A stretch of 64,000 nucleotides of DNA, taken from an uncultured bacterium (GTDB lineage: Bacteria > CSSED10-310 > CALFER01). The position numbers were made by a program, and so were the translations under genes. Under the pieces are notes generated by a model. It was not told the origin of the DNA, did no database searches, and saw nothing but the letters and a program-made list of their open reading frames with translations. Positions 2,821-35,060 of this stretch are shown piece by piece. The stretch lies in contig CAYYMM010000001.1 in NCBI GenBank assembly GCA_964472395.1, positions 36,069 to 100,068 of the forward strand, in the 5' to 3' direction. The first letter of the stretch is position 1, and each line of letters opens with the position of its first letter.

Positions 2821-3222
2821 TCAGATCGTAACCGGATTCGACGAATTCCCGACGACGCGGACGAGAAGCCGTTTCAGATCGGCGATGGCGAAGGGTTTGG
2901 TGATGAAATGGATCGCGCCGGCTTCGATGGTTTTCCGTCGGATCGCCATGTCGTCGACTCCGGAGAGCACGATGACGGGGATATCCCGGAGCTTCGGATC
3001 GGATTTGATGCGTTTGAGAAGATCCATGCCGTTGATATCGGGCAGAAACAGGTCGAGCACGATGCCATGGATATCGAGATTCGTGACGGATTCTTCGAAG
3101 TCGACCGCCGATGGGCAGTTGACGATGCGGAACCCGGGATCGTTTTCGAATCCGGCGGACATAATTTCTCCTACGAATTCGTCATCATCGACGATCACGA
3201 TGTTCAACGCCTGTCCGGTCAT
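2821..3222 (-). CDS. Single-domain response regulator (CheY-like receiver)
   Basis: Acidic pocket in IVIVDDDE, phospho-acceptor Asp in VLDLFLPDINGMD, and KP in ITKPF. 133 aa. Its start overlaps the upstream Hpt ORF stop by 4 nt. Confidence 0.8.
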   Translation of the reverse strand: MTGQALNIVIVDDDEFVGEIMSAGFENDPGFRIVNCPSAVDFEESVTNLDIHGIVLDLFLPDINGMDLLKRIKSDPKLRDIPVIVLSGVDDMAIRRKTIEAGAIHFITKPFAIADLKRLLVRVVGNSSNPVTI

Positions 3223-3767
3223 TTTCCCGGGTCTTTCTGTCTGAGAATCGCTCGAAGATCCTGCATGAAGCCCTCCCAGTCAGAGGGTGCAAAAAGAGGG
3301 CCAGTTTCGGGTGAGCGGGCCGCTTCCTGGCCGATCCGGCGGGTGAGCTCCTCCAGATATGCCCGGGCGGAATCCGGCAGGCCGGTCTCGGCGGCCTCGA
3401 GCAGGATCTGTTCGGCGAGGGCGGCGATATCTGAGAGAGCCTGCATTTGCATCATGGCAGCATTGCTTTTGAGATTATGATATTTGCGGGCCGCGGTGCG
3501 CAGCGGCGGTTCGGAATCCGGCTGGACGGGCGTCGATTCGTTCAGGCACAGGAGGATGACCTGCAGACTGTTCTGGAGTTGCGTCAGGAAAAAGGGCTGG
3601 TAACGATCGATGTTCAGAATCACCTTCCGGTATATCGGGGCGCTGGCGTGCCTGCACCCCATTGCCCGGGCGCAAAGCGCGCGGGCTACGAACGGGTTTG
3701 CAGGGACTATATAGAATTTTGCGAATGAAGCCAACATCAATATGTGGGGGGAACGGGGCGGATGCAT
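3219..3767 (-). CDS. Hpt (histidine phosphotransfer) domain protein. The true start is probably internal.
   Basis: Motif YHNLKSNAAMMQMQALS resembles the Hpt H-x-L-K-G-S-S-x-x-x-G signature. Translationally coupled to the downstream receiver gene. Confidence 0.5.
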   Translation of the reverse strand: MHPPRSPHILMLASFAKFYIVPANPFVARALCARAMGCRHASAPIYRKVILNIDRYQPFFLTQLQNSLQVILLCLNESTPVQPDSEPPLRTAARKYHNLKSNAAMMQMQALSDIAALAEQILLEAAETGLPDSARAYLEELTRRIGQEAARSPETGPLFAPSDWEGFMQDLRAILRQKDPGK

Positions 3768-4362
3768 ACTATTGGATGGAGCTGTCGGCGATCAAGCGTA
3801 CCCGGGAGCGGGCGGCTTGCTGGCGCGCGCGGTAACCGGTTGATTTTTCTTTGAATCCTTCGGGGATCCGGAGTATACTCGGAAACTCCAGGACCATTCC
3901 GCGCGACAACGGGGAGGTTGGATTGAGCGATTTTTTCCGGGCGTGCATGCCAATTTCGGTCATGAAGAACGCGTGCAGCGGTCTGTCCGAACGCCCCGAT
4001 GATTCGACTCGATCCAGCTATTGGGGTAGTCTCGATCGACAGTTCCATCCGTTGTGGAATGCGGCTGTTTTGGAGCCTGCGCACCGTTTTTTGTCACTCC
4101 ACGAACGCAATTTTGTCAATCCGAACGGGTTGAAAAGGGGTGTGGCGATTCTTACAATGGAAGGGTCGGTATCGAGCGCGGGGGGGCATCGCGGCTATAT
4201 GGTTGAAAAATCGGGATTTTCGAAGAATTCGGGGTCGTTGTGTCGAATCGATCGCCCTTATCGATCACTTCGGAATGATTTTTGCATTTTACCGTGTGCT
4301 TTGAGGGGAGCAGAATCCCTTTTTTCGTGTTCACCCAACCTAACCTTATGGGAGGAAAATGT

Positions 4363-7300
4363 ATGAGGAAAGCGTTACTTTTTCTGACGGTTGCCATGAT
4401 GATGGCGACCGCGAGCTACGCGCAGACGGCTCTGCCATGGTCATGCGATTTCGCGACGGATGACTGCGGAGCGATCTACGAAGATGATGGCACTTCGTCA
4501 TCATGGGCTCGCTCCACCAGCAGCGGTTGCGCCGCACCAGGTATGTACCACGGTTACAACGGAGCCCACTATGACATCGATTATGTTGTCTGGGGGCCGT
4601 TCACAACCCCCACAGCGGATGTGGTCAGCCTGAGTTATGATCTGTCGATTTCGACTTGGGGCGACGAAGTTACAGTCATGTACATCACGAACCTGTATCT
4701 GGATCCCAACACCAATCCAGGTTCATGGATCGTGGCTGATGGGCCCTACTCGGCTTCAGCAGCCTGCGTCGCACACAGTGCCGATTTATCTGGTGTCCTC
4801 GGGTCAACTCAATTTTGGATCGCTTTCAGATACCAGGGACAAGACGCCTATTATGCTTATATCGACGATCTAAGCCTGACCTTCTCTTCTGGTCCGACCG
4901 CAACACCGACGAACACACCGGTTCCTGCTCCTGGACAGAATTGCGCCAGCGCAATCGCCATCAACATCCCCGGATCTCTGCCTTATTCACAGGCCGGCAC
5001 GAACTGCGGACTTCTGAACGACTATGCCGCAACCTGCCTCGGCAGCTATGACGGCGGCGAAGACATCATCTATCAGCTGGTTGTTGCAACAGACACGAAT
5101 GTTGAGATTTCATACACAACGACGGATACCTGGACCGGCATCCTTCTTGATGATTCCTGTCCTCCGGACCCGACAACGTGTATTGATATCGCAACAAGCA
5201 GTGCAGCCGGAACGATTACACTCGGTCAAAACCTCCTTGCTGCCGGCACCTACTACCTCATGCTCGACACCTATCCAACTCCGGACTGCATCTCCAGCTT
5301 CACACTCAACATCACGAGCGCTGGTGCTACAGCCACACCGACACCGACTGCGCCTCCGGCCGGCCCCGGCGATAGTTGCGGGAATGCGCTCCCGATCGCC
5401 AGCGGCGACTGTCTGCTCGGCGACTACACCGGCATGACCAACAACTTCGACTGCGGCGGCACCGGTGGCGTTGCTGGCGGCCCCGACATGGTCTACACCT
5501 TCACTCTCGCCGATTCCAGTTATGTTCACATCCTCGCCGAATCCGCCGGGGATATCGACCTTGCAGTGAGCAATGTCTGCGATGCCTCCACGGCGACATA
5601 TCTCTGCGCCGATACATCAGGCAGCTCAACATCAGCCCAGACATCCTGCGGCGACACCATCACCCCAGGTACATACGGATTCCACACATTCTACCGCCTG
5701 CTTCCAGCCGGCACCTACTACATCTGGCTTGATTCCTATTCCGGTGAGCTCGGTGACGAATTCGCCATTGAAATGTTCGCAACACTTGAATCCGTCACAT
5801 GCGCCGGTTGCCCGATAGGTGGTACACCCGAAGGCGAACCGACCTGCGCGGCCGAATATGTGGATACCTTCAACGCGGGTTGTAACGCCGCCACACCGGT
5901 CTTCACAACCATCACGCCCGGAACGACGATCTGCGGCCAGACCGGTACCTACACAGTCGGAACAGCCAACACACGCGATACCGACTGGTATCAGATCACC
6001 GTTGCATCTGCGGCTGACCTGATCGTCGAAGTTGCAGCCTCGTTCCCCAGCACGACCCTGATCGTTCCGGCCGTTTGTCCGGTCGCTTCGATCCTGGCCA
6101 GTGGCTCGGATACTCGTTGTCCGGGTTCTTCGTACGAAGTGATCGCGACGGTTGCCGCCGGTGATTACTATATCATTGTGCTTCCCACTGTTTTCACGGA
6201 CATCCCCTGCGGCAGCGCGAGCCGGTACTGGATGGCGGTTACAACCGATGTTCCGTCGACACCGACACCGACACCGACTTCCTGCGCATCGTGCCCGCCG
6301 GGCGGCACTGCCGAAAACGAACCGCTGTGCGGTCCGGAGTACGACGATACATATAACGGCGGATGTAACTCGACTGTTCCCGTGTTCCAGACCATCACCA
6401 ACGGTCAGACAATCTGCGGCGAAGCAGGAACATTTACATTCGGCACCGACAACTATCGCGACACCGACTGGTTCGAGTTCACCCTGACGGAAACGTCGGA
6501 TGTGACGTTCTCGGCTTACGGTGATTTCCCGATTCTGGCCTGGCTTGCTGCAACAGAAGATTGTGTCAATTACGACTTCACGCAGTATGACGACGCCGAC
6601 ACATGCGAAACCGCGACAACCATCCGGTACACAATGCCTGCGGGCGATTACATTGCGATCGTAATGCCCAGTGTATTCGAAGGCATTCCCTGCGGTGTCA
6701 AGTACGTGGCAACACTGACCTGGGGTCCCGCTGCACCGACACCCACACCGACCGTCACTCCTCCGCCTGCTGGTCCTGGCGACACATGCCTCAATCCGAT
6801 CACCATCAATTGCGGCGACTGCGTGCTCGGCACAACCGTCGGGATGAACAACAACTTCAGTTGCGGTGGTCTCGGAGCCGGCCCCGATGTGGTCTACACC
6901 TTCACCCTGGCAGAACCTCAGACCATTCATATCATCGCCGAGAGCGATGAAGATCTCGATTTCGCGGTCACCGACGTCTGCGATGCCTCCACTGCCACCT
7001 TTGCATGCTCGGATCGCCTGGGCACACCTCCGGTGGCTGCGTCTTGCGGCGAAGCCATCACTCCGGATACCTGGGGATACTTCGACTACTCAGCAACAGT
7101 GGATGCCGGCACCTACTACATCTGGATCGACACCTACAGCGCCACTGGCGGCGGTGCCTTCGCTCTCGAACTGCTCTGCTCGGATCCTCCGTCTTACGTC
7201 CTGGAATGCCCGGCCACCTCTCAGCTCTCTCAGCCGGTCAACCCGCTGGATCTCGGATTCAACGGCTTCTCCTCCGATCTGGGCGGCGATTTCCGGTACT

Positions 7301-7806
7301 TCGATGATTACTCTGTGACCGATCCGGTTTGCTGGGTCAAGTTCTGGGGTCTCTACACAGCCGGAAACGACACAGACTTCACGATCGAATTCTGGACCGA
7401 CAACGCCGGACAGCCCGGCACCCTGACCAACAGCTATCCGATTACCGGCGCGACACCGATCGACACCACCTGGACTGCCTTCGGCTACCCGATCTATGAA
7501 TACTTCGTCGAACTGCCGACTTGCGAAGCACAGCTTGCCGGCTGGATCAGCATTCAGGGCGCGAGCAACGGTTCGACCTTCTACTGGGCCGTGAATTCGT
7601 CAGCCACCGGTGCGGATTGCTACGAGTATCAGGTATCCACCACAACGTGGACTCCGGATGTCTATGATCTCGCATTCTGCCTCGGCAATGCCGAACCCCC
7701 GACCCCGACTCCTCTGCCGGTTCCGACTTCCGGTCCGTTCGGCCTGGGCGTCATGATCTTCGCGATCAGCGCACTGCTCGGCCTGAGTGTTCTCCGGAAG
7801 AAGTAA
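4363..7806 (+). CDS. Large secreted multi-domain protein: signal peptide, N-terminal jelly-roll (MAM-like) region, then at least five PPC (bacterial pre-peptidase C-terminal)-like domains in two sub-families, C-terminal PT linker, single TM helix and RKK tail.
   Basis: ORF track 4282..7806. Start chosen at ATG 4363, 6 nt after GGAGGA (4351..4356). Signal peptide MRKALLFLTVAMMMATASYAQTA. Repeated modules GDSCGNALPIASGDC...AGTYYIWLD and CPIGGTPEGEPTCAAEY...RDTDWYQIT occur twice each. C-terminus ...PTPLPVPTSGPFGLGVMIFAISALLGLSVLRKK. Confidence 0.8.
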   Translation: MRKALLFLTVAMMMATASYAQTALPWSCDFATDDCGAIYEDDGTSSSWARSTSSGCAAPGMYHGYNGAHYDIDYVVWGPFTTPTADVVSLSYDLSISTWGDEVTVMYITNLYLDPNTNPGSWIVADGPYSASAACVAHSADLSGVLGSTQFWIAFRYQGQDAYYAYIDDLSLTFSSGPTATPTNTPVPAPGQNCASAIAINIPGSLPYSQAGTNCGLLNDYAATCLGSYDGGEDIIYQLVVATDTNVEISYTTTDTWTGILLDDSCPPDPTTCIDIATSSAAGTITLGQNLLAAGTYYLMLDTYPTPDCISSFTLNITSAGATATPTPTAPPAGPGDSCGNALPIASGDCLLGDYTGMTNNFDCGGTGGVAGGPDMVYTFTLADSSYVHILAESAGDIDLAVSNVCDASTATYLCADTSGSSTSAQTSCGDTITPGTYGFHTFYRLLPAGTYYIWLDSYSGELGDEFAIEMFATLESVTCAGCPIGGTPEGEPTCAAEYVDTFNAGCNAATPVFTTITPGTTICGQTGTYTVGTANTRDTDWYQITVASAADLIVEVAASFPSTTLIVPAVCPVASILASGSDTRCPGSSYEVIATVAAGDYYIIVLPTVFTDIPCGSASRYWMAVTTDVPSTPTPTPTSCASCPPGGTAENEPLCGPEYDDTYNGGCNSTVPVFQTITNGQTICGEAGTFTFGTDNYRDTDWFEFTLTETSDVTFSAYGDFPILAWLAATEDCVNYDFTQYDDADTCETATTIRYTMPAGDYIAIVMPSVFEGIPCGVKYVATLTWGPAAPTPTPTVTPPPAGPGDTCLNPITINCGDCVLGTTVGMNNNFSCGGLGAGPDVVYTFTLAEPQTIHIIAESDEDLDFAVTDVCDASTATFACSDRLGTPPVAASCGEAITPDTWGYFDYSATVDAGTYYIWIDTYSATGGGAFALELLCSDPPSYVLECPATSQLSQPVNPLDLGFNGFSSDLGGDFRYFDDYSVTDPVCWVKFWGLYTAGNDTDFTIEFWTDNAGQPGTLTNSYPITGATPIDTTWTAFGYPIYEYFVELPTCEAQLAGWISIQGASNGSTFYWAVNSSATGADCYEYQVSTTTWTPDVYDLAFCLGNAEPPTPTPLPVPTSGPFGLGVMIFAISALLGLSVLRKK

Positions 7807-7858: not shown

Positions 7859-7995
7859 GTGTTTCATTGCATATCTCAGATGCCGGCGGGGACGCCGGCG
7901 CTACTCACGGTCCAATTTTTTCGATAGGGCCATCAGGCAGGGACGCCTGCTGCTTCAATTCAGTTCAATCTGTGTAATCTGCGTAATCTGTGGAT

Positions 7996-8042
7996 AAAAA
8001 AAACCCCGTTCGATCCCTCGACTTCAGTCAGGATGAACGGGG
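7996..8042 (-). terminator. Rho-independent terminator for gyrA on the minus strand
   Basis: Minus strand reads ccccgttcatcctgactgaagtcgagggatcgaacgggg followed by T8. Sits 9 nt after the gyrA stop (8051..8053). Confidence 0.7.
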
Positions 8043-8050
8043 TTATTCTT

Positions 8051-10564
8051 CTAGCTGAACAATTCCGGTTGAACGGTCTCGGACTCATCACCGCCCATGT
8101 CACCGTTCTCATCACCGCGGTCTTCGCCGCCTTCACGTTCGACGACACGCGCCACCGCAACGATTTTCGCGCCTTCACGTGCGATGTCCTGCAGCATGAC
8201 ACCCTGTGTCGATCGGCCGATCGACCGGAGGCTTTCCATGTCGACCCGGATCCGGATCAGTTTCCCGTGCGATGTCACCATCAGAAACTCGTCGTCTCCG
8301 AACGATTGCAGGATGCCCATGACCGGGCCGTTTCGTTCCGTGATCTTCATGTTGATCAGGCCCTTGCCGCCGCGTGTCTGTGTCCGGTATTCCTCGATGC
8401 TCGTTCGCTTCCCGTAGCCGTTTTCGGAAACGGTCAGCATAAGAGCGCCTTCATAGAGCACTTCCATGCCGATCACATGATCGCCGGATTCCAGCCGGAT
8501 GCCGATCACGCCGCGCGTCGCCCGGCCCATCGGGCGCACATCGGTCTCTTTGAACCGGATGCTCATGCCCTGATGAGTCGCGATGAAGACGTCCTGTTCG
8601 CCCGATGTCAGGCGGACACTGATCAATTCATCGTCTTCATCGATGATGATGGCTTTGAGTCCTCCCGAGCGATTGGTGTCGTATTCGACGAGGGATGTTT
8701 TCTTCACGATGCCGTTGCGCGTGCCCATCATGATGAATTTGCCTTCTTCGAATTTCTTGATCGGCAGAATCGCCCGGACGTTTTCGTCGGATTCGAGCGA
8801 CAGGAGGTTTTTCAATGAACTGCCGCGCGCCGTCCGGCTGCCCTGCGGTAACTGATAGACCTTCAGTCTGTAAACGCGTCCCTTGTCGGTAAAGATCAGC
8901 AGGATATCGTGCGTGCCGGCGAAGATCAGATGTTCGGTGAAATCCCCTTCCTTAGGGATAATGCCGGTCGCGCCCTGCCCGCGCCGTTTCTGTGCTCGAT
9001 AGAGCGACAGCAGCGTCCGTTTCGCATAGTTTTCGTGCGTCACGAACACCACCATGTCCTCTTCCGCAATCATATCCTCATAGTCGATCTCACTGTCCGC
9101 ATCCAGAATCAGCGTCCGGCGCGTATCGCCGAATTTCGCCTTGATTTCGAGCAGTTCCGTCTTGATCAGATTCATCAGCAGTGCTTCGGATTCCAGAATC
9201 GCACGCAACCGGCTGATCTCTTTAAGGAGTTCAAGGTACTCCTCGCGAATCTTGTCGCGTTCGAGACCCGTCAGCCGCTGGAGTCGCATATCGAGAATCG
9301 CCTGTGCCTGAACCTCGGACAAGCCGAACTGCGTCTGCAGTCCGTTCCGGGCTTCCTCGACCGTTTTCGATCCCCGAATCAGCGTGATGACCGCATCGAG
9401 ATGATCCAGAGCGATGATCAGGCCTTCCAATATGTGCGCCCGGTCTTCCGCCTTCCGGAGGTCGTATCGGGTGCGTCTGACCACCACCTCCCGCCGGTGC
9501 AGAATGAAATGATCCAGCATTTTCTTCAGCGACAGCACTTCCGGGCGGCCGTTGACGAGCGCGACCATGTTGACGCCGAAATTGAGCTGCAACTGGGTGT
9601 GTTTGTATAGCTGGTTCAGAATCGCCTTGGCGATCTGATCCTTCTTGAGTTCGATGACGACCCGGATGCCTTCGCGTCCCGATTCGTCGCGAACGTCCGA
9701 GATTCCCTCGATTTTTTTATCCTTGACGAGTTCCGCGATTTTGGTGAGAAGATCGGCTTTGTTGACCTGATATGGCAGCTCGGTGACGATGATGTCTTCC
9801 TTGCCGGCCTTCTCACGATGCTCGATCACCGCCTGTGCGCGGATCGTGATGGAACCCCTCCCGGTCATGTAGGCCTGGCGGATCCCGTCTCGTCCGTAGA
9901 TCATCGCCGCCGTCGGGAAATCCGGTCCGGTGACGATCCGCATGATGTCGAGATCCGTGTTGTCGGGATTGTCGATCATGTGGATCAGGGCATCGATGAC
10001 TTCGTTCAGGTTGTGCGGCGGGATGTTGGTCGCCATACCGACGGCGATGCCGCTGGAGCCGTTGACGATGAGATTCGGGAAGGCGGCTGGCAGGACATCG
10101 GGTTCATGGGTCGTGTTGTCGTAATTGGGGACGAATGTGACGGTTTCCTTTTCGAGATCCCTGAGGATTTCCTCGGAGATCTTCGCCATTCTGACTTCCG
10201 TGTATCGCATGGCGGCCGGCGGATCGTTGTCGACCGATCCGAAGTTGCCCTGGCCGTCGACGAGCGGGTATCGCATGGAGAATTCCTGGGCCATTCGCAC
10301 GATCGAATCGTAGATCGCCTGATCGCCGTGCGGATGGTAATTGCCCATGACTTCGCCGACGACTTTCGCCGATTTGCGGTAGCCTCGGGTGGGGCCGAGA
10401 CCCATTTCGTGCATGCCGAACAGAATCCGGCGATGCACCGGTTTCAGACCGTCGCGGACATCGGGGAGCGCGCGCCCCACGATGACGCTCATCGCATAAT
10501 CGATGAACGCCGACCGCATCTGATCTTCAATATTGACAGGAATCTTGTTTTCCGGAATCAGCAT
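8051..10564 (-). CDS. gyrA: DNA gyrase subunit A
   Basis: 837 aa. Motifs [25 protein letters not shown] and active-site AAMRYTE. C-terminal beta-pinwheel repeats and an acidic tail. ATG preceded by GGAG. Confidence 0.97.
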
Positions 10565-10579: not shown

Positions 10580-14174
<3,595 letters not shown>

Positions 14175-14180
14175 AGAGAA

Positions 14181-15284
14181 TCAGACGATCATCGGCATGA
14201 CGATCGCCAGATACCGTAGCTCAGATTCAATGCCCGGCCGGAATTCCACCGGCCCTGACGGATTGTTCACGCGGATCGCGACATCCTCGGCATCGATCGT
14301 TTTGAGCAGTTCCAGAAGATACGTGACATTGAAACCCACAGTGAACGGCTCTTCGGTATACGCGATGGGAATCTGATCGCGGGCTTCTCCGAATTCAGGG
14401 GTATTGGCGGAAATCACGAGCATGTTGTTCTCAATGTTCATCTTGATTCCACGCGCTTTGATATCGGAAAAGAGCGATACGCGACGGAGCGACAGCATGA
14501 GGCTTTCCTTGTTCACTTTAATGATCAGACGGCATTCCTTCGGAATGACGATTGAATAATTCGGAAACATGCCTTCGACCAGCCTGGATATAACCGTTTC
14601 GCAACCGACTTTGAACACGAGATGATTGTTGTTGATGCCGAAACGAAATTCCTCTCCTCCTGCTCCGACCATCCGTTGGATTTCATGGACCGCCTTCTGA
14701 GGGATGATGACCTCGAGCGGAGTCATATTGAGTGTATTCGGTGTTTCAACATAAGCCAGACGATGGCCGTCCGTCGCGATCATCCGAACCGCTTCGTCAT
14801 CCACTTTGAACAAGACGCCTCCGAGAACCCGCCGGTTCTCGTCGTGACTGACCGCGTAGACCACTTTTTTGGTCAGATTATCCAGCAGATCACCAGGAAC
14901 GATGGTGAGGTTGCTTTCGTCCACATCCGGAAGCTTCGGGTAATCCACATCAGAAGAGCCGAAAAGACGAAACTCCGAAGATCCGCAGGAGAGCTTGATC
15001 CAATTGTTCTCCTCGAGTTTGAACTTCACGAGATTTTCCGGAAGTTCTTTCAGGACTTCGTAGAGTTTTTTTGCCGATACGAGAATACTTCCTGCTTCCG
15101 GAACATCGCATCCGATGAGATCACGGATACCGACCTCGAGGTCTGTAGCGATGACTTCGAGATTGCCTGAGTTGGCTGTCAGTTTGACGTTGTTCAGAAA
15201 TGGGTTGGTACTGCGTCTTTCGATGATCGATTGAACCTTCTGAATACTGGTCTGAAATGCTGATTTTTCGATACTGAATTCCAT
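14181..15284 (-). CDS. dnaN: DNA polymerase III beta sliding clamp
   Basis: 367 aa. Three-domain clamp with an N-terminus typical of DnaN (MEFSIEKSAFQTSIQKVQSII...). Confidence 0.95.
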   Translation of the reverse strand: MEFSIEKSAFQTSIQKVQSIIERRSTNPFLNNVKLTANSGNLEVIATDLEVGIRDLIGCDVPEAGSILVSAKKLYEVLKELPENLVKFKLEENNWIKLSCGSSEFRLFGSSDVDYPKLPDVDESNLTIVPGDLLDNLTKKVVYAVSHDENRRVLGGVLFKVDDEAVRMIATDGHRLAYVETPNTLNMTPLEVIIPQKAVHEIQRMVGAGGEEFRFGINNNHLVFKVGCETVISRLVEGMFPNYSIVIPKECRLIIKVNKESLMLSLRRVSLFSDIKARGIKMNIENNMLVISANTPEFGEARDQIPIAYTEEPFTVGFNVTYLLELLKTIDAEDVAIRVNNPSGPVEFRPGIESELRYLAIVMPMIV

Positions 15285-15770
15285 GATTGATCCTCCGGAA
15301 ACTTATCTGGTCATGTATAGCAGAAATCAGATGCGAAGTAAATGAAATCGTGCGTTTTTTTCTCTTCCCCGTCCACTCTCCGAAGAAGCTTCTAAGATAT
15401 GAAAATGGAGAGTTCATCGAAGTAGTCATAGAGGCTGTCGATAAGTTGAAAAGTGACTGGACTGATTGAAAATCAATCTTTTTTATCGCTCATAATTGTT
15501 CGCAAGTCTTACTGTTTTACTCCGGGTTGTGCACAAATCATCATCATTTTCGAACGTGTGTCGTTATGCACATGTTGTGAACGGGTTATTGACATCACTC
15601 TGTTGAAAATTTGATTAATGCATTCTGAAATAATACTGTTTGTCTCGGTCGCGACAGGAGGTCATTTTTTTCTTGACACGATATTTCAAGTGTTTGCGAG
15701 ACATTGTTTACGCACAGAGTTATAGACAGATGTTTATTGTTAAATTAAATATCTGAATAATAACACTTTA
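15285..15770. promoter_or_regulatory. AT-rich intergenic region upstream of dnaN. Candidate oriC and dnaN promoter region, with DnaA-box-like 9-mers.
   Basis: GC content drops sharply relative to flanking DNA. Near-consensus DnaA boxes TGTCGATAA, TTATGCACA, TTGTGCACA, TTATTGACA and TTATAGACA. AT-rich candidate unwinding tract taaattaaatatctgaataataaca. The position upstream of dnaN is classical for bacterial origins. Confidence 0.45.
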
Positions 15771-17009
15771 TTGAGATATGAAAGTGCGAAAAATCTGATT
15801 TTGTCAGGTATCGGAACGGGGTTGGAAAGTGCGATGGGAAAAAGAACTGATTTCATCGATAGTTGCAAACCAGTACTGGGAATTCTTGCGGAGACTACCG
15901 AAGAACACACCAAAAGACTGGGTTCTCAGACAAACATGCTCGAAGAAATGTGCCGATATGCTGAAAACACAGGGCTCCGCATCATCGTCTCCAGTATCCG
16001 GAACTGCGATGAAATCATTGAAAACAAAGCAGTTCCAGGCCTGTTTCTGCATGAAGAAAAATGGTGTCAAGCGGTTTTCTCACCCCCGTCGCTCTGGTAC
16101 GACCGCGTTTATTCGGATCTCGCACACAGAGAAACTGATCTCATACAATGTCGATCGAAACTCGTCCAATCCAATCGAGTCGCCTTTCTGAATCATCCGG
16201 CCATGACATCGATTCTCGGAGATAAACTCGCATTCTCACAATTCTGTGCGCGTCACGCGCTTCCAACCCCGGTCACAGAACTGCTTGACCCGGGACTTTT
16301 CAGGAATCCATCTCGTCAATCCGGCCGATTCATCGCCAAACCGCGCTTCGGAAGGAAGGGAATCGGGATCATCCGCTGCGCTTTTTCCAGTGACGGCCGC
16401 GGAACCTGCTCGACACACGGCAGGCAAGTTTCGACGCGAACGCATTCCGAATCAGACGGTGTGCTGTCGGAGTTGATCCGGCAGGTTGGATTGAGTCGGG
16501 AAGATTACATTATTCAGGCTGAGATTCCCGCTGCCAAAGTAGATGGAAGATGGTGCGACATCCGGTGTATGGTACAGCGAATGAACCGGCATGACCGGGC
16601 CGTTTCCGGGATTGCGGTCCGTGTATCGTCCCATGACCGCGTCACGCCGAATCTCGACCGCGAAGGAATTGCTGTTCCTTTCGAGATGTATGCTCGCCTG
16701 GCCTTTCCGGATCTGGATGGTTCCGTGCTTCGTGAAAAAGTCGAATCGACAGCGCTTCGAATGTTTGATGCCATCGAATCCGAAACGGGACCAGCAGCGG
16801 AAGCGGGGATCGATCTGCTGATCGACCCTCATGGCTCAGTTCATCTGATCGAAGCGAATGCGAAGCCCGGTCGGATTATCTATCAGCGTCTGAGTTCCGG
16901 CTTTTATTTGACAGAAGCGGAAAAGACTCGCTATTTAGAGATGCGTCGGAACACGATCCGGAACCCGATCCGGTATGCACGCCATCTGCTTGAAGGAAGC
17001 ATTGATTGA
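15771..17009 (+). CDS. ATP-grasp family protein (YheC/YheD- or RimK-like ligase). Start uncertain: the ORF-track start is TTG, with a possible ATG near 15834.
   Basis: 412 aa. C-terminal ATP-grasp signature GRFIAKPRFGRKGIGI and an acidic residue in LIEANAKPG. Confidence 0.6.
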   Translation: MRYESAKNLILSGIGTGLESAMGKRTDFIDSCKPVLGILAETTEEHTKRLGSQTNMLEEMCRYAENTGLRIIVSSIRNCDEIIENKAVPGLFLHEEKWCQAVFSPPSLWYDRVYSDLAHRETDLIQCRSKLVQSNRVAFLNHPAMTSILGDKLAFSQFCARHALPTPVTELLDPGLFRNPSRQSGRFIAKPRFGRKGIGIIRCAFSSDGRGTCSTHGRQVSTRTHSESDGVLSELIRQVGLSREDYIIQAEIPAAKVDGRWCDIRCMVQRMNRHDRAVSGIAVRVSSHDRVTPNLDREGIAVPFEMYARLAFPDLDGSVLREKVESTALRMFDAIESETGPAAEAGIDLLIDPHGSVHLIEANAKPGRIIYQRLSSGFYLTEAEKTRYLEMRRNTIRNPIRYARHLLEGSID

Positions 17010-23370: not shown

Positions 23371-26300
23371 ATGAAAGGCAGATCGATATTATCCCTTGCG
23401 GCATTACTCATGTTTTTTGCCGCCGCTGCCCACGGGCAGACCATCGCCAGATGGGATTTCGAAGACGAAAATCTGATCGTCGATGAAGGCTCCGGAACGC
23501 TCGCTCGCATTGGTGGCGGAGCTGTGAGCTATGTGACGGGAAATCCGGGGCGAGCAGTGACCAGCAACAATTATCCCACAGCCGCCAGTCCGGACGCTAC
23601 CAACTGCTGGCAAATCAATATCAGCACATTGAGCTTCTTCGACATTTTTCTGAGTTTCGATGAAACTCGATCATCCACTGGAATTCGTGCATTCCAGGTG
23701 TTTTACAGCATCGACGGAGGCAGCAACTATACGGCAGCCGCTCCTGCGACAACCGTTCCCGATGATTCGCTTTGGCGGTCTCAGTCGATCGACATGTCTG
23801 CGATCTCTGAAATCGAGAATGCCGCCAGTGTTATTTTGCAGATCAGACCCTATTCTGCCGAAGCGACGACCGGCACGTGGCGGCTGGATGACATCCTGAT
23901 CTCACAAGGCGCGCCCGCGGCCACGAGCACGCCGACATCTCCCTCTGCCACCAACACACCGACACCGACCAACACGACCGGCGGACCGACCAGCACACCG
24001 ACCAATACCCCTCCCAGTTCATCGTCCATCATCATCAACGAAGTCGACTCCGATACCCTCGGAACAGACGTCGCGGAATTCATTGAATTATACGACGGCG
24101 GCACAGGCAATACATCTTTGAATGGACACGTCGTCGTACTATTCGACGGCAGCACCGACACCAGTTATCGTGCTATCGATCTCGATGGATATACCACCAA
24201 CGCCCAGGGTTACTTCGTCATCGGTTCGACCGGCATGGGCACACCGATCGAGATCAGTCCGGGAGGATCCGGATGGTTGCAAAATGGTGCGGATGCCGTT
24301 GCGGTGTATCTCGGACATGACACAGCATTCCCGTCCGGGACAGCCGTTACGACCACAAATCTCGTGGATGCGCTGGTGTATGACACGGACGACGCGGACG
24401 ATGCCGGTCTGCTCGATCTGCTGAACGCCTCGGAACCGCAGATCAACGAAAACATCAACCTGAATAAAGACACTGAATCCATGCAGCGATGCCCGAACGG
24501 CACAGGCGGCGCGCGCAATACGTCGACATACACGCTCCTGGCGACCACCATGGGTGTCGAAAACACCTGCGTGATTCCTCCGACCAACACACCGGCGAAC
24601 ACGCCGACTCCAACCAATACTTCAGGCGGCCCGACAGATACACCGACCGTGACTCCGACGAATCCTCCGATCAGCGCCATAAAAATCAACGAGGTGTTTG
24701 TCAATTCTCCGGAAACAGACATCCACTGTTTTGTGGAATTGTATTATCCTGGTGGCAACCTGAGTCTGAACGGTTATTCACTCGTTGGCGTCAACGGAAA
24801 CGGTGGAGCCGATTATGTAACGATCGACCTGTCAACCTACTCGATTCCGGCGGATGGTTTCTTTGTAATCGCTCAGGATACCGGCGTTGCGAATTACGAT
24901 ATGATCGCCGCTTCGGTTGATATGCAAAACGGTCCGGATAGTATTCAACTGCGCGCGGGTGCGGTTGTGGTTGATGCCATGGGGTATGGCAACTTCAGCT
25001 CTGCTGTGTTTGCCGGTGAAGGCACACCATGCCCGATTATACCACCTGAGTATTCCTACTCGCGTATTCCCGACGGCGAGGATCTCGATGACAATGTCGT
25101 CGATTTCTTCATCGGCGACCTGACAGCCGGTCTTCCCAACGTGGAAGCAGTCGTTCCGACGGCGACACCGACCGGTTCAACACCGGTTCCCACCAACACT
25201 CCGACCTCCTCCGGACCGACCAATACCCCGACCATCACCCCGACCTCAGGCCCGATCCCGCCGATCAAGATCAACGAAATTTTCGTCGATCCGGTGAGTC
25301 TTGACGACGATCTGGAATGGATGGAAATCATCAATACATCTGATTCTCCGGTTGATGTTACCGATGTGATCATCCAGAGCACGACGGCGACCGGTCAGGT
25401 CTACACCGATCGCGTCATTCTGCCCGCGCTGATCATCCCGGCCAACGGATATCTGCTCGTTGCGGAATCACTGGTCGATGTGACATCGGTCCCCGGAACG
25501 ACCGTCATCTATCAGCCGACGTCCCCGGATCTGGATATCGATATGCAGAACGGATCGTCGCACACCGAAGGCGTGCGGATCGTGACCGGCGCGCATGACG
25601 TGATCGATACCGTGATCTATTCAAACCCGAACGAACCCGATCTGATCCCCGGCGATGAACCGGGCGATCCGTACGGTGAGCATTTCGCGCTGCGACCGCT
25701 CAGCGGCAACAGTCTTGCGAGATGCCCGGACGGTCAGGACACGAACCTCTGCGATGAAGATTTCATCCGCCGGACAACGGAATATGTCACCATCGGCGAT
25801 ATAAACAACTGCGAAGTTCCGACCCCGACTCCGACTCCCACCGGCCCGACCCCGACTCCGCCTCCGACATCCGCCATCAAACTGAATGAAGTCTACATCA
25901 ATCCGCCGGGAACGGATGTGGGCTGCTTCGTCGAACTGTATTTCCCGGGCGGCATGGCGCTGACCGGATACAGCATCGTCGGAATCAACGGGTATGACGG
26001 ATCGGAATACATCACGATCGATCTGTCCACCTACTCGATTCCGACCGACGGATATTTCGTCATCGCCCAGGATACCTCGGTGGCCAATTACGACGTGATC
26101 GATACCCGGATCAATCTCCAGAACGGTCCTGACAGCATCCAGATCAAGTACAGCGGTGTGGTGGTGGATGCGATGGGGTACGGCGATTTCACGGGTATGA
26201 TTTTCGGTGGCGAGGGAGATCCGGCTCCGGCATACTTCACGGGACCGTATTCGCACTCGCGGATTCCGGATGGCGACGACACGGAAGACAACCTGACCGA

Positions 26301-26466
26301 CTTTGTCGCCGGCGAATTGACATCCGGTCTGCCGAACATCGAGACGGTTGTGCCGACACCGACTCCGCCGCCTCAGGTGCCTGCATCGAGCCCCGCCGGT
26401 CTGGCCGTCATGATCATCATGATTTCGGTCCTGATCGGTTGGAGTCTTGCCCGCTCGCGCAACTGA
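23371..26466 (+). CDS. Secreted protein with four lamin-tail-domain (LTD) repeats, a conserved N-terminal domain, PT linkers, a C-terminal TM helix and basic tail
   Basis: 1031 aa. RBS GGAGG 8 nt upstream. Signal peptide MKGRSILSLAALLMFFAAAAHG. LTD signatures begin IIINEVDSD...FIELYDGG, IKINEVFVNSPETDIHCFVELYYPGG, IKINEIFVDP...WMEIINTSD and IKLNEVYINPPGTDVGCFVELYFPGG. C-terminus ...VPASSPAGLAVMIIMISVLIGWSLARSRN. Confidence 0.8.
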   Translation: MKGRSILSLAALLMFFAAAAHGQTIARWDFEDENLIVDEGSGTLARIGGGAVSYVTGNPGRAVTSNNYPTAASPDATNCWQINISTLSFFDIFLSFDETRSSTGIRAFQVFYSIDGGSNYTAAAPATTVPDDSLWRSQSIDMSAISEIENAASVILQIRPYSAEATTGTWRLDDILISQGAPAATSTPTSPSATNTPTPTNTTGGPTSTPTNTPPSSSSIIINEVDSDTLGTDVAEFIELYDGGTGNTSLNGHVVVLFDGSTDTSYRAIDLDGYTTNAQGYFVIGSTGMGTPIEISPGGSGWLQNGADAVAVYLGHDTAFPSGTAVTTTNLVDALVYDTDDADDAGLLDLLNASEPQINENINLNKDTESMQRCPNGTGGARNTSTYTLLATTMGVENTCVIPPTNTPANTPTPTNTSGGPTDTPTVTPTNPPISAIKINEVFVNSPETDIHCFVELYYPGGNLSLNGYSLVGVNGNGGADYVTIDLSTYSIPADGFFVIAQDTGVANYDMIAASVDMQNGPDSIQLRAGAVVVDAMGYGNFSSAVFAGEGTPCPIIPPEYSYSRIPDGEDLDDNVVDFFIGDLTAGLPNVEAVVPTATPTGSTPVPTNTPTSSGPTNTPTITPTSGPIPPIKINEIFVDPVSLDDDLEWMEIINTSDSPVDVTDVIIQSTTATGQVYTDRVILPALIIPANGYLLVAESLVDVTSVPGTTVIYQPTSPDLDIDMQNGSSHTEGVRIVTGAHDVIDTVIYSNPNEPDLIPGDEPGDPYGEHFALRPLSGNSLARCPDGQDTNLCDEDFIRRTTEYVTIGDINNCEVPTPTPTPTGPTPTPPPTSAIKLNEVYINPPGTDVGCFVELYFPGGMALTGYSIVGINGYDGSEYITIDLSTYSIPTDGYFVIAQDTSVANYDVIDTRINLQNGPDSIQIKYSGVVVDAMGYGDFTGMIFGGEGDPAPAYFTGPYSHSRIPDGDDTEDNLTDFVAGELTSGLPNIETVVPTPTPPPQVPASSPAGLAVMIIMISVLIGWSLARSRN

Positions 26467-31425: not shown

Positions 31426-32889
31426 ATGAAAATACTGCTGATCATCCCGCCCGGCGGATACTATGCGGAACGATGGAGCGGAGGCGTGTTGATGCCGCCG
31501 CTCGGAATCGGATACGTTGCCGCATCGCTCGAAAACACCGCTCATGACGTTCGCCTGCTCGATGCCCACGTCGGAAGAATGACGGATCGTGACGTCCAAT
31601 TGGTAGTTGAAACCGAAAAACCAGATGTGGTCGGCTTGACATTCACGACAGAAAACCGTTTTGAGGCATTTGCGACGGCTCGCGCCATCCGTGAGGCAGC
31701 GCCCGGGTGTCATCTGACAGCCGGAGGCCCTCATGTTTCACTCGCCGCTCAGGATACGCTCGAGGGGGTGTCCGTCTTCGATTCGGTGGTGGCAGGAGAA
31801 GGTGAGATCACGATGGTGGAGCTGGCGGAAGCGCTGTCGACCGGCCGTGAGCAAGATCTGAGCAAAGTCGGAGGCCTCGTGTACCGCGATTCAGACGGCA
31901 TCATCCGGTCGAACCCAGGCCGCGAACGCATCATGGATCTCGATTCCATCCCCTTCCCAGCCCGCCACCTGTATCCTCCGATGTCGGAATATCATTTTCA
32001 GTTCGACGTACCGGGAAAGGGTATCCGGCAGTTCTCGAATCTGATGACCAGCCGCGGCTGTCCCTGCGCGTGCAATTTTTGCGCGACCCCGAAGGTGTGG
32101 GGTCGTCAGGTTCGGATGCGGTCGCCTGAGAACATCATGTCCGAGATCGATCTGATGGTGGAGCGGCATGGCGCGCAGGCGTTGTGGTTTTTCGACGATA
32201 CGTTCAATTCGTCGCCCAACCGCGTCCGGAAGCTGTGTGCGATGATCCGTGACCGGCAATACGACCTTCCGTGGTTCTGTGAGGTTCGGGTCGATCAGAT
32301 GTCAAAGGAATTACTGGCGGAAATGCGCGAGGCCGGCTGTTACACGATCGGGTTCGGGGTCGAATCCGGCTCGCAACGCATCCTCGATGATGTCGTCGGA
32401 AAGCACCTCAAGCTGGAAAAAGTGCATGAGTTGTATGAATGGTGCCGCGAGTTGGATGTGATTGCCAATCCATTTTTCATTCTGAGTCACCCGACCGAGA
32501 CCTGGGAAGAGGCGCGATTGACGATCGATCTGATTCGTAAATTTAAGGAAGGCGCACAGGTGTCGATGGCGTTCATGCATGTTTATCCCGGCACGGAACT
32601 CGAACGTGAGGCCCGTCGGATCGGCACGCTGCCATCGGATTTCAAATGGCATCAGGATGGCCGGACAGACGTGAAAACCCTCCCGTCGGCTCAAGGGAAT
32701 GTCCCGATTTTCCTGGATAAACTGTCCTGGTCGCAGGTGTCGGATCTCTTGTTCGAGTGGGCCGAGATGCAGCATTATTCGGTTTGGAGGAAAATCCCCA
32801 AAGTGCTCCGATCCATCCGCTCGATCGATGATGTCAAACGGTATGGCATCATGGGTTGGCGTTATCTGCGGAGACGGCTTTCTCTGTGA
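31426..32889 (+). CDS. Cobalamin-binding radical SAM enzyme (class B), paralogue 1
   Basis: 487 aa. N-terminal B12-binding Rossmann-like domain (MKILLIIPPGG...) and radical SAM cluster motif TSRGCPCACNFCATP. Confidence 0.8.
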   Translation: MKILLIIPPGGYYAERWSGGVLMPPLGIGYVAASLENTAHDVRLLDAHVGRMTDRDVQLVVETEKPDVVGLTFTTENRFEAFATARAIREAAPGCHLTAGGPHVSLAAQDTLEGVSVFDSVVAGEGEITMVELAEALSTGREQDLSKVGGLVYRDSDGIIRSNPGRERIMDLDSIPFPARHLYPPMSEYHFQFDVPGKGIRQFSNLMTSRGCPCACNFCATPKVWGRQVRMRSPENIMSEIDLMVERHGAQALWFFDDTFNSSPNRVRKLCAMIRDRQYDLPWFCEVRVDQMSKELLAEMREAGCYTIGFGVESGSQRILDDVVGKHLKLEKVHELYEWCRELDVIANPFFILSHPTETWEEARLTIDLIRKFKEGAQVSMAFMHVYPGTELEREARRIGTLPSDFKWHQDGRTDVKTLPSAQGNVPIFLDKLSWSQVSDLLFEWAEMQHYSVWRKIPKVLRSIRSIDDVKRYGIMGWRYLRRRLSL

Positions 32890-32948: not shown

Positions 32949-35060
32949 ATGCATCTCGATAATCTCTCCGGAATGCAGATCCGCGAATATCGTGTGATCG
33001 AAAAACTCGGTCAGGGCGGAATGGCGACGGTGTTCAAGGTCGAGCATGTCTTGTTGCGCACGTTTCGCGCGATGAAGGTGATCCGACCGGTCAAGAACCA
33101 AGATGCGCAGTATGTTCTGCGTTTCGAGCGCGAAGCTCGTGTACTTGTCAGCCTCGACCACATCAACCTTGTGCGCGTCTATGATTTTTTTCAAGAAGAG
33201 GGGTGCCTGTTCCTGATCATGGAATATGTGCCCGGTGAGAGCATGGAGGTGCGGCTGCGAAGAACACATGTGTTTTCGGCACGTGATGTGATCGAGATTC
33301 TCTCGCAGGCCTGCGAAGGCTTGCATGTCGCTCATCAAGCCGGCATCGTGCATCGCGATCTGGCGCCGGACAATCTCCTGATCATGCCGCTTTCCGATGG
33401 GTGTGAACGAATCAAGGTCATTGATTTCGGCATTGCAAAGGATGTGACTGAGAGTCAGACGGATGGGCTGACCGTGATGGGCAAATTTGTCGGTAAACTG
33501 GCGTATTGTTCACCGGAACAGGCTGCCGGAAACGCGCTGGATCAACGCAGCGACATCTATTCATTGGGCTTGGTCGCCCATCGAGCCTTGACGGGACGCA
33601 TCCCGTTCCATCCCAAATCCCCGTTCGAAGCACTCGCCCTGAGGCAGGTTCAGGATGCGCCGACGCTGTCGGAAAGCCGACCGGATGGACGATTCCCGGA
33701 CAGGTTGGAGGCAGCCGTGGCGCGAGCGCTCAAGCGAGATCCTCGTGAACGGTTTCAGCGTGTGCTGGAGTTCCGGGATGCACTGCGCGATGTCATGGGT
33801 GAATGTGAGGCGGCGAACGAAGACACTCAGTTTCGTACCACATCGAAAGCGGCGAAACAGATTCCTGGATCAGAGTCGCTGTCCGACCGGATCGAGCCCG
33901 ACGGGACTGACGATCGGACAATCGAGGGGCAACGCGCCGCCGTTCCGATCGAAGTGGATCTGGATCGCCTGGAGACCTCGGTTCGCGATTTCCCCTGGGG
34001 TATCTTCATTGTGATTGCTCTGGCTGTTGCCGCATTCGTAATCGGCTGGTATCAAATCTCACACTACGGGAAGCAGGCGCCGACGATGCCGATACCGCCG
34101 ACGATTTCTGTTTCGTCGCCGACTCATACGATGACGCCTGAAGACACCGAGACACCCTTGCCGACGATGATGGATACTCCGACCATGACCCCGGAGCCCC
34201 TCCCGGAAACCCTTCCCATCCAGACTCAATCTCCCGTCAACACTCGACCAGAACCGACGACCGCCGACTCAGACCGAACTCTTGCGATCGTGAAGGCAAC
34301 CGCTGAGGCTGAAAAAGCCCGCTGGGTCTCTGCTCCCACAGACGTGCCGTTGGCGCGGATCGCGCACGGCGCGGTCGTGATCGGCAGTGATCCCGATGAA
34401 CCCGGGAGGCGCGATGACGAATCGGTTTGGGCGGTTGGAATCAGCAGGGATTATCAGGTATCTGTCACCGAAGTGACTCAGGCCCAGTATCTTGCGGTCA
34501 TGGGCCACAATCCCAGCCGGAATAAAGGGCCGGATTATCCCGTCGAGAGTGTCACGTGGTTCGATGCGCTCCGGTTCTGCAATGCGCTGTCGATCAAGCA
34601 GGGGATCAAGCCGGCCTATGAGATCACGAAGGATGGAGATAGCATCGAGGTGAGCTGGCTGCCGAATTCCAGCGGATACCGTCTGCCGACCGAGGCGGAA
34701 TGGGAAACGGCGGCGCGTGCCGGCAGAAAGACGCCATTTACGGTCGGGGGCAGGCTCACACAGGGGCACGCGAATTTCGACAATCCTTCCGGAATTAAAA
34801 CAGTGCGCTGTTACGAACCGAATGCGGCCGGGATATATGATGTCGAAGGGAACGTGCGGGAATGGTGTTGGGACGGGTATGGCGAATATGGAACCGAGCC
34901 AGTGACCGATCCGTCGGGACAAGCGGCTTCATCGCGGAGAGTGGTGCGGGGCGGGAGTTTCCGAACGAAGATGGAGGGATGCCGGCTGGCGGGGCGGGAT
35001 TCCGAGGAGGCGGGGAAACGTTCCGACGACATCGGATTCCGGGTGGTGCGGAACCCGTGA
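32949..35060 (+). CDS. Ser/Thr protein kinase fused through a TM helix and PT-rich linker to a C-terminal FGE-sulfatase (formylglycine-generating-enzyme family) domain
   Basis: Kinase motifs HRDLAPDNLL and DFGIAK. TM helix GIFIVIALAVAAFVIGW. FGE-family motifs VTWFDALRFCNALS, GYRLPTEAEWE, NVREWCWDGY, RVVRGGSF. Confidence 0.85.
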   Translation: MHLDNLSGMQIREYRVIEKLGQGGMATVFKVEHVLLRTFRAMKVIRPVKNQDAQYVLRFEREARVLVSLDHINLVRVYDFFQEEGCLFLIMEYVPGESMEVRLRRTHVFSARDVIEILSQACEGLHVAHQAGIVHRDLAPDNLLIMPLSDGCERIKVIDFGIAKDVTESQTDGLTVMGKFVGKLAYCSPEQAAGNALDQRSDIYSLGLVAHRALTGRIPFHPKSPFEALALRQVQDAPTLSESRPDGRFPDRLEAAVARALKRDPRERFQRVLEFRDALRDVMGECEAANEDTQFRTTSKAAKQIPGSESLSDRIEPDGTDDRTIEGQRAAVPIEVDLDRLETSVRDFPWGIFIVIALAVAAFVIGWYQISHYGKQAPTMPIPPTISVSSPTHTMTPEDTETPLPTMMDTPTMTPEPLPETLPIQTQSPVNTRPEPTTADSDRTLAIVKATAEAEKARWVSAPTDVPLARIAHGAVVIGSDPDEPGRRDDESVWAVGISRDYQVSVTEVTQAQYLAVMGHNPSRNKGPDYPVESVTWFDALRFCNALSIKQGIKPAYEITKDGDSIEVSWLPNSSGYRLPTEAEWETAARAGRKTPFTVGGRLTQGHANFDNPSGIKTVRCYEPNAAGIYDVEGNVREWCWDGYGEYGTEPVTDPSGQAASSRRVVRGGSFRTKMEGCRLAGRDSEEAGKRSDDIGFRVVRNP

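Follow-up and report, generated by a model that had tools for sequence, protein, structure and literature searches.

The locus lies in a 64-kb stretch of DNA, hereafter the window, from a bacterium of the candidate division CSSED10-310. On the minus strand of the window, dnaN, encoding the beta clamp (14181-15284), is the first gene of a block that continues with recF (13023-14174), gyrB (10580-13021) and gyrA (8051-10564). Pfam searches found the N-terminal, central and C-terminal DNA_pol3_beta domains in dnaN and bore out the gene order dnaN-recF-gyrB-gyrA claimed in a preliminary description of this DNA. As that description also stated, the gene upstream of dnaN is not dnaA and encodes an ATP-grasp protein; it is of the YheC/D type (Pfam ATPgrasp_YheCD, E=2e-39) and is divergent from dnaN on the plus strand (15835-17009). 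None of the 47 ORFs of the window has a Bac_DnaA domain according to Pfam. Downstream of the ATP-grasp gene, also on the plus strand, Pfam identified an iPGM gene followed by a glgC-like gene. The ATP-grasp gene most likely starts at ATG 15835, judging from N-terminal homology to relatives: its N-terminus MGKRTDFIDSCKPVLGILAETT aligns with the homologue in the related locus L034 from this codon. The length of 486 bp previously given for the intergenic region needs correction, because its end at 15770 corresponds to an upstream TTG of the ATP-grasp ORF; with the start at ATG 15835 the gap covers 15285-15834 and measures 550 bp. This whole divergent intergenic region, which has a GC content of 0.37, the top DnaA-box cluster and many invariant alignment columns, is a candidate oriC.

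The gap differs in composition from the DNA around it. The GC content of positions 15285-15770 is 0.368; that of the 2-kb flanks is 0.516 and 0.539, and that of the whole window 0.552. The gap is thus AT-rich as described earlier, although the figure of ~60% GC for its surroundings was slightly overstated. The 500 bp with the lowest GC content of the 64 kb are in the gap (0.36; next lowest 0.45). The five 9-mers that had been quoted as near-matches to the DnaA box, TGTCGATAA (15436), TTGTGCACA (15527), TTATGCACA (15564), TTATTGACA (15586) and TTATAGACA (15720), are all found in place, but only two boxes are within 1 mismatch of TTATCCACA and the rest have 2 mismatches. Formal DnaA-box scoring, suggested at the same time, ranked the gap as the densest cluster of the 64 kb, with 9 boxes of up to 2 mismatches from TTATCCACA against 2.09 expected and no more than 4 in any other 500 bp; none of 500 dinucleotide shuffles reached 9. 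At up to 1 mismatch there are 2 boxes against 0.17 expected (p=0.02), and a default 1-mismatch scan would show a weak cluster. Box counts summed over nine clade gaps came to 50, compared with 22.9 expected and a shuffle maximum of 36, in tests that count related sequences as independent; canonical-box matches alone gave no significant excess in four relatives. Rfam detected no RNA family in the gap (a permissive threshold gave one chance miRNA match, E=0.42), and scans of the gap for sigma-70 promoters and terminators gave nothing over shuffle background.

We compared the window with nine further clade genomes (L001, L034, L047, L033, L038, L040, L041, L042 and L043) whose DnaN identity ranges from 98% to 44%. 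The nearest species-level genome is represented by the MAG contig CALFER010000059 (L001, 98% DnaN identity), and homologues at 43-56% identity carry the name candidate division CSSED10-310. An exact look-up of the DnaN sequence of the window gave no match, so that homologues were the way to the relatives; the protein at the right edge of the window had no database entry either. A further contig, L127 (ENA assembly ERZ27257500), matches the window at 100% identity over 6.2 kb and continues for 9 kb to its left. A metagenome scan with the clade DnaN alignment, the patterns of which were too generic for the clade, yielded only L047 as a new member; the other 79 loci were outgroups and were used as controls. 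The arrangement iPGM<-ATP-grasp<-[479-721 bp gap]->dnaN-recF-gyrB-gyrA is present in all nine further genomes, and the gap is the most AT-rich DNA in every locus examined. The gap alignment contains 64-66 invariant columns, whereas 30 shuffled controls had a mean of 4.9 and a maximum of 10. Found at DnaN identities of 44-59%, these columns indicate strong selection on non-coding blocks. On the other side of the block, most relatives have a gene of about 1770-1785 aa after gyrA (L033, L038, L040, L043; about 17.3 kb on) whose product joins Ser/Thr kinase, AAA_16, TPR, GAF and sigma-54 activator domains. A convergent PPC-domain gene takes its place in the species of the window; the 1174-aa protein encoded at 4282-7806 has a weak, below-threshold PPC-domain match in Pfam.

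Searches for DnaA in the window and the clade loci by signature regex, tblastn and Pfam gave no match. There was likewise no dnaA in the 9-kb extension provided by L127 or within 10 kb of dnaN in the nine further clade genomes. In a tblastn search of 15 clade loci (window, L001, L033-L044, L047), 0 of 15 contained DnaA within the available flanks, and L045 and L046, which have 39% DnaN identity and contigs ending about 700 bp upstream of dnaN, gave no match either. Among 110 outgroup loci, the same queries found dnaA in 87, in most cases immediately upstream of dnaN. Because dnaA is absent from both the window and L127, its distance must be at least 24 kb in the direction of gyrA and at least 48 kb in the opposite direction. 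The relocation of dnaA, which had been put forward as a lineage feature, is borne out to this extent: the gene is missing from the window, the 9-kb extension and the region of +/-10 kb in relatives. A phylum without dnaA altogether is very unlikely given that DnaA-box-like sites are present. A box cluster immediately upstream of dnaN, with no adjacent dnaA, is conserved in the lineage.

The consensus TTATCCACA used earlier is not the box of this lineage. Enumeration of all 4+NN+3 patterns in eight independent gaps returned TTATNNACA instead, which occurred 16 times against 2.2 expected and in all eight gaps. Its seven outer positions match the DnaA box, positions 5-6 are free and position 6 differs from the usual C. 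The best-conserved box pair, pair A (15708-15728, plus strand), consists of TTACGCACA (15708-15716) and, after 3 bp, TTATAGACA (15720-15728); it points toward the ATP-grasp gene and has the form TGTnnAYAA-nTC-TGTnnAnAA in 10 of 10 sequences. Array B (15564-15594, plus strand) comprises TTATGCACA, TTGTGAACG and TTATTGACA in the same orientation, 2 bp apart and with an 11-bp period. It corresponds to repeat family D2, and its arrangement is the same in L034 and partial in other relatives. A tandem box pair on the minus strand (15436-15452) points toward dnaN and consists of TTTTCAACT (15444-15452) and TTATCGACA (15436-15444), the latter 1 mismatch from consensus; the pair is found in 10 of 10 sequences and reads GTATCCACA+ATATTGACG in L047. 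A further site, TTGTGCACAA (15527-15536), is a box readable on both strands that is present in L001 and weakly conserved elsewhere. Next to it, the run A-ATC-ATC-ATC-ATT-TTC after TTGTGCACA conforms in one frame to the minimal NAN-triplet rule. We rejected the ATC ATC ATC run (15537-15551) as a trio array, as it is absent even from the 98% relative L001.

Several other elements of the gap are conserved. Block C (15601-15619, minus strand ATTAATCAAATTTTCAACA) has 13 invariant columns (A216-A234) and includes a TTTnAACA element. The sequence CTTGACA (15672-15678, plus strand) is invariant in all alignments, and enumeration of 7-mers found it 10 times against 0.58 expected, in 8 of 8 independent gaps. 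It reads as a perfect -35 hexamer and is followed, on the dnaN-sense strand, by a T/A run and CCTCGC. No -10 partner was found for it by the sigma-70 scan, by reading of the sequence or in the clade loci. CTTGACA may be part of a promoter for transcription across the origin, or a site of an origin-binding protein. Closest to dnaN, the minus strand contains an RBS, GGAGG (15292-15296), a -10 element, TATACA, with an upstream TG (15314-15319), and a -35 element, TTTACT (15337-15342). The promoter spacer is 17 bp, and TTTAC..N17..TGnTA is conserved in the 10-sequence alignment. We infer that TTTACT-17-TGnTATACA and GGAGG are putative expression signals of dnaN.

AT-rich stretches stand 3' of the outward-pointing boxes at both ends of the gap. 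At the dnaN end, the tandem pair is followed on the minus strand by a GC-cluster spacer, GCCT (15432-15435), and by the DnaA-trio-like triplets 5'-CTA TGA CTA CTT CGA TGA-3' (15414-15431; the complement on the plus strand reads 3'-GAT ACT GAT GAA GCT ACT-5'). Past the triplets there is an AT-rich stretch (about 15385-15413), our preferred candidate for the unwinding element. In published descriptions of the unwinding module, a DnaA box, single or in tandem, precedes a GC cluster of ~4 bp, which is followed by repeated DnaA-trios and then by an AT-rich region; the trio consensus is 3'-GAT-5' (5'-CTA-3' on the other strand), of which the middle A is essential. The orientation of the box relative to the trios was deduced from E. 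coli R1/DUE, the C. difficile trio sequence and the outgroup loci. Judged by its sequence, the dnaN-proximal module resembles the published one, and its order of box pair, GC cluster, triplets, AT-rich stretch and dnaN is kept in 10 of 10 clade sequences. A G/C-rich spacer of 1-4 nt follows the box in all ten. Over the 30 nt that follow the triplets, the AT content is 67% in the window and 70-90% in relatives, and the stretch beside the triplets is the least stable 30-mer of the gap in L033, L040 and L041. The in-phase [CT]T[AT]/middle-T score of nine clade sequences was 57 against 39.4+/-3.4 and was reached in 0 of 5000 shuffles, a figure that is not a true probability because the sequences are related.

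The rules of Pelliciari 2021 specify a box with up to 2 mismatches and an optional second box with up to 4, a spacer of 0-16 bp and at least three consecutive NAN triplets. The box TTATCGACA (1 mismatch) with its partner TTTTCAACT and the spacer GCCT agree with these rules. As for the triplets, the window has at most two NAN triplets in a row (CTA TGA CTA CTT CGA) and L001 is also short, while three in a row occur in five of the ten clade sequences (L033, L038, L040, L042 and L047). The module of L033 reads TCATCCACC-C-CTA CTA CTA CGC CTA TTT-AAATAAAAAAATTTATAAT. Some 70 bp upstream of dnaN, the dnaA-dnaN gaps of outgroups contain a like module that is oriented the same way. That of L053 reads TTTTCCACA GCAA CTACTACTACTACTA G TTTTTTTATT, where CTACTACTACTACTA is (CTA)x5, and the sequence ...CCCCCTGCTGTGACTAC... 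in the outgroup L023 is strikingly similar to ...GCCCCTGTGACTAC... in L001.

We also analyzed nucleotide skew, which could be followed over 73 kb and has a resolution of about +/-5 kb. The G-C skew of the plus strand is -0.073 (plus-strand genes) and -0.013 (minus-strand genes) left of the gap, and +0.035 and +0.056, respectively, right of it. Being negative on the left and positive on the right for genes of both strands, the skew has a sign that tracks the side of the gap and not the gene strand; 75% of the coding bases of the right arm are on the plus strand. Two-segment fits placed the breakpoints at 9.5-14.9 kb (permutation p<0.002). The purine-pyrimidine minimum falls within the gap, at 15687. 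Cumulative G-C is flat from 10 to 15.3 kb (-296, -314, -297). The preliminary description had proposed a skew minimum as a check on the origin. Within the 73 kb, the sign changes at 9.5-15.7 kb as predicted, but the formal cumulative minimum, at 11341, is outside the gap. The left arm is a short one, and L127 has slightly positive skew 3-9 kb beyond the left end of the window. Of eight relatives, five have their cumulative G-C minimum no more than about 750 bp from the gap; the skew switch in the relatives is partly a coding-strand effect. Altogether, the skew agrees with an origin at this locus, give or take about 5 kb, but does not prove it.

Elsewhere in the window, a small site at 7961-7997 contains three head-to-tail 9-mers on the minus strand, TTATCCACA GATTACGCA GATTACACA, the first of which is the only perfect DnaA box in the 64 kb. 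The site is situated between the terminators of convergent genes (4282-7806 on the plus strand, and gyrA), 7.3 kb from the origin candidate, and L001, of the same species, is the only other contig in which its sequence was found. It may serve for secondary binding or titration of DnaA. Further left, the plus-strand ORFs 2908-3480 and 3447-3728 have no Pfam matches and are probably spurious; the L127 gene calls at 2821-3737 are a response-regulator receiver gene and an Hpt gene on the minus strand. On the right, three paralogous B12-binding radical-SAM genes (31426-32889, 39251-40720 and 45141-46508) are interleaved with sulfatases (43366-45144, 47629-49740), methyltransferases and glycosyltransferases, and among them is a gene for a kinase fused to an FGE-sulfatase (formylglycine-generating enzyme-like) domain (32949-35060). 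This region looks like a large island for cell-envelope or sulfated-glycan modification on the right replichore. Two large proteins, encoded at 23371-26466 and 35256-37634, have multiple Lamin Tail Domains.

A box cluster, a flanking AT-rich element and a skew switch, by which an oriC is recognized, all occur in the window. We propose, with a probability of about 0.78, that the chromosome of this CSSED10-310 bacterium has its DnaA-dependent oriC in the 550-bp gap that separates dnaN from the ATP-grasp gene. The earlier suggestion of an origin upstream of dnaN is thereby upheld, by a conserved box array, an unwinding-like module and a skew sign change within about 5 kb. DnaA, made from a distant gene, would bind the same-orientation arrays of relaxed boxes (TTATNNACA) in pair A and array B, the latter having the 2-bp spacing typical of cooperative low-affinity arrays. 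It would also bind the oppositely oriented tandem pair beside dnaN (15436-15452). From there, a DnaA oligomer may extend over the GC cluster onto the CTA-type triplets at 15414-15431 and open the AT-rich stretch that follows them (about 15385-15413), some 40 bp upstream of the promoter of dnaN. In evolutionary terms, the origin would have stayed with dnaN in this phylum while dnaA became unlinked.

The same origin might instead open at its other end, where pair A would direct DnaA onto the AT-rich tract at 15729-15770. This tract contains the element at 15741-15765 that was originally suggested for unwinding, and it could serve as an alternative unwinding site, as the promoter region of the ATP-grasp gene, or as both. 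The layout there is TTACGCACA-GAG-TTATAGACA, then G-ATG TTT ATT GTT, then the AT-rich tract; the upstream box of this tandem pair is 13 bp from the first triplet, a spacing more common than any other in Pelliciari 2021. This end is the one to which most boxes (A and B) point. Four consecutive middle-T triplets occur in the window, L001 and L034, and the gap has its least stable 30-mer in this tract in the window (dG -28.0) and likewise in L001, L034, L038 and L042. The original element is present in the least stable DNA, but the trio-like phasing expected of it does not hold up across the clade: most relatives lose the phase after two triplets (..TG TTT AAA), and the clade-wide triplet score of 49 is no excess over the 46.1 of shuffles (p=0.24). 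A GC cluster is absent from this end, the conserved TTTAAACA may be a box of the other strand, and the promoter of the ATP-grasp gene must also fit in the tract. The conserved module is at the dnaN end, where the outgroups have theirs as well. Opening at the ATP-grasp end thus appears unlikely, though it deserves consideration, and on the sequence features the dnaN-proximal site would be favoured over it by roughly 2:1.

Could the gap be something other than an origin? It could be a conserved divergent regulatory region in which DnaA, or relic boxes, control the dnaN operon, with oriC elsewhere. DnaA acts as a transcription factor at box clusters outside origins, according to two reports (PMC4447404, PMC11317965), and the window itself has the triple-box site outside the gap at 7961-7997. 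The skew, with its resolution of about +/-5 kb and weak left arm, leaves room for this view, and the true oriC could adjoin the unlinked dnaA; an origin retained beside dnaA is the main residual risk of our proposal. We nevertheless consider a purely regulatory region improbable. The skew flips here in the direction of an origin regardless of gene strand in the window, and the gap, at 500-700 bp the most AT-rich DNA of each locus, is well over the need of two promoters. In addition, array, triplet module and AT-rich stretch are all conserved, and dnaN-linked origins without dnaA are experimentally established in cyanobacteria (PMC4009838). It is more improbable still that TTATNNACA, TTTnAACA and CTTGACA are sites not of DnaA but of another DNA-binding protein specific to the lineage. 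The box has no fixed bases at positions 5-6, in contrast to canonical TTATNCACA, and the invariant CTTGACA lacks an explanation, yet 7 of 7 specified positions fit the DnaA box and near-perfect boxes are found at homologous positions in relatives (GTATCCACA in L047, AGTGGATAA in L040, TCATCCACC in L033); the place beside dnaN and the trio-like module also suit DnaA. Finally, AT-rich DNA gives more near-matches to an AT-rich 9-mer, and four relatives show no significant canonical-box excess taken alone, as would be the case if the gap were AT-rich by chance and its near-matches spurious. This idea was ruled out, with hardly any probability left to it, by the box shuffles, the pattern enumeration and the shuffled-alignment controls: dinucleotide-preserving shuffles of the gap never attain the observed box count, the 64-66 invariant columns compare with about 5 in shuffled alignments, and box positions are kept between genomes whose DnaN proteins are only 44-59% identical.

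The proposed oriC has counterparts in known systems. In cyanobacteria, an origin beside dnaN with dnaA elsewhere is the rule, and the dnaN-adjacent origin has been confirmed experimentally in Synechococcus elongatus PCC 7942 and Anabaena PCC 7120 (PMC4009838). The gap resembles these origins in its position directly upstream of dnaN, in the lack of an adjacent dnaA, and in having a lineage-specific variant of the DnaA box and a layout conserved across the phylum (PMC4009838). It differs in the box, which is TTTTCCACA in cyanobacteria and TTATNNACA plus TTTnAACA in CSSED10-310, in the ATP-grasp gene as upstream neighbour and the intact dnaN-recF-gyrB-gyrA block, and in being an origin predicted from sequence. 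As its box motif is not TTTTCCACA, the gap does not belong to the cyanobacterial set of origins but is an analogue of them.

The oriC of Escherichia coli (gidA-mioC) is also unlinked from dnaA but, unlike the candidate in the window, from dnaN too. Similar to the gap, it has oppositely oriented arrays, same-orientation sites 2 bp apart (as in array B) and end boxes that point outward. Another common feature is that the box nearest the unwinding element reads TTATCCACA toward the element; E. coli R1 reads TTATCCACA toward the 13-mers (a sequence that E. coli genomes match at 100% identity). The window gap showed neither GATC/SeqA nor 13-mer features. The 'basal unwinding system' of Bacillus subtilis (incC) consists of DnaA-boxes 6/7, a GC cluster, DnaA-trios and an AT-rich region just upstream of dnaN, and it reads in the same direction on the dnaN-sense strand. 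The window has the same succession of tandem pair, GC cluster, CTA/CTT/TTA-type triplets, AT-rich stretch and dnaN, and the outgroup L053 shows the textbook form. In contrast to B. subtilis, the window has a gene other than dnaA upstream, CGA/TGA/AGA break up the series of triplets, and the module is about 160 bp from the dnaN start with the dnaN promoter between.

CSSED10-310 might have a distinct origin grammar, in which the TTATNNACA box is combined with a second element, TTTnAACA, fixed in its strand, with the invariant CTTGACA and with a box/AT-rich module at either end. If so, CTTGACA would be a promoter across the origin or the site of an origin-binding regulator, and the modules at both ends could mean two unwinding sites. 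We regard such a grammar as doubtful; the relaxed box, the strand-fixed TTTnAACA, CTTGACA and the two-end modules are lineage details from which we claim no novel biology. As the dnaN-linked, dnaA-unlinked layout is already known from cyanobacteria, the gap would be a new example and not a new kind of origin, and the general understanding of origins is unchanged. The work provides a first origin prediction, backed by comparative evidence, for a rare and uncultured phylum that only MAGs represent. The prediction would anchor genome coordinates and peak-to-trough estimates of growth rate for MAGs of the clade. It would also be one more independent instance of a split of the ancestral dnaA-oriC-dnaN unit that left the origin with dnaN, and it would extend the unwinding module of box, GC cluster and trios to one more deep lineage.
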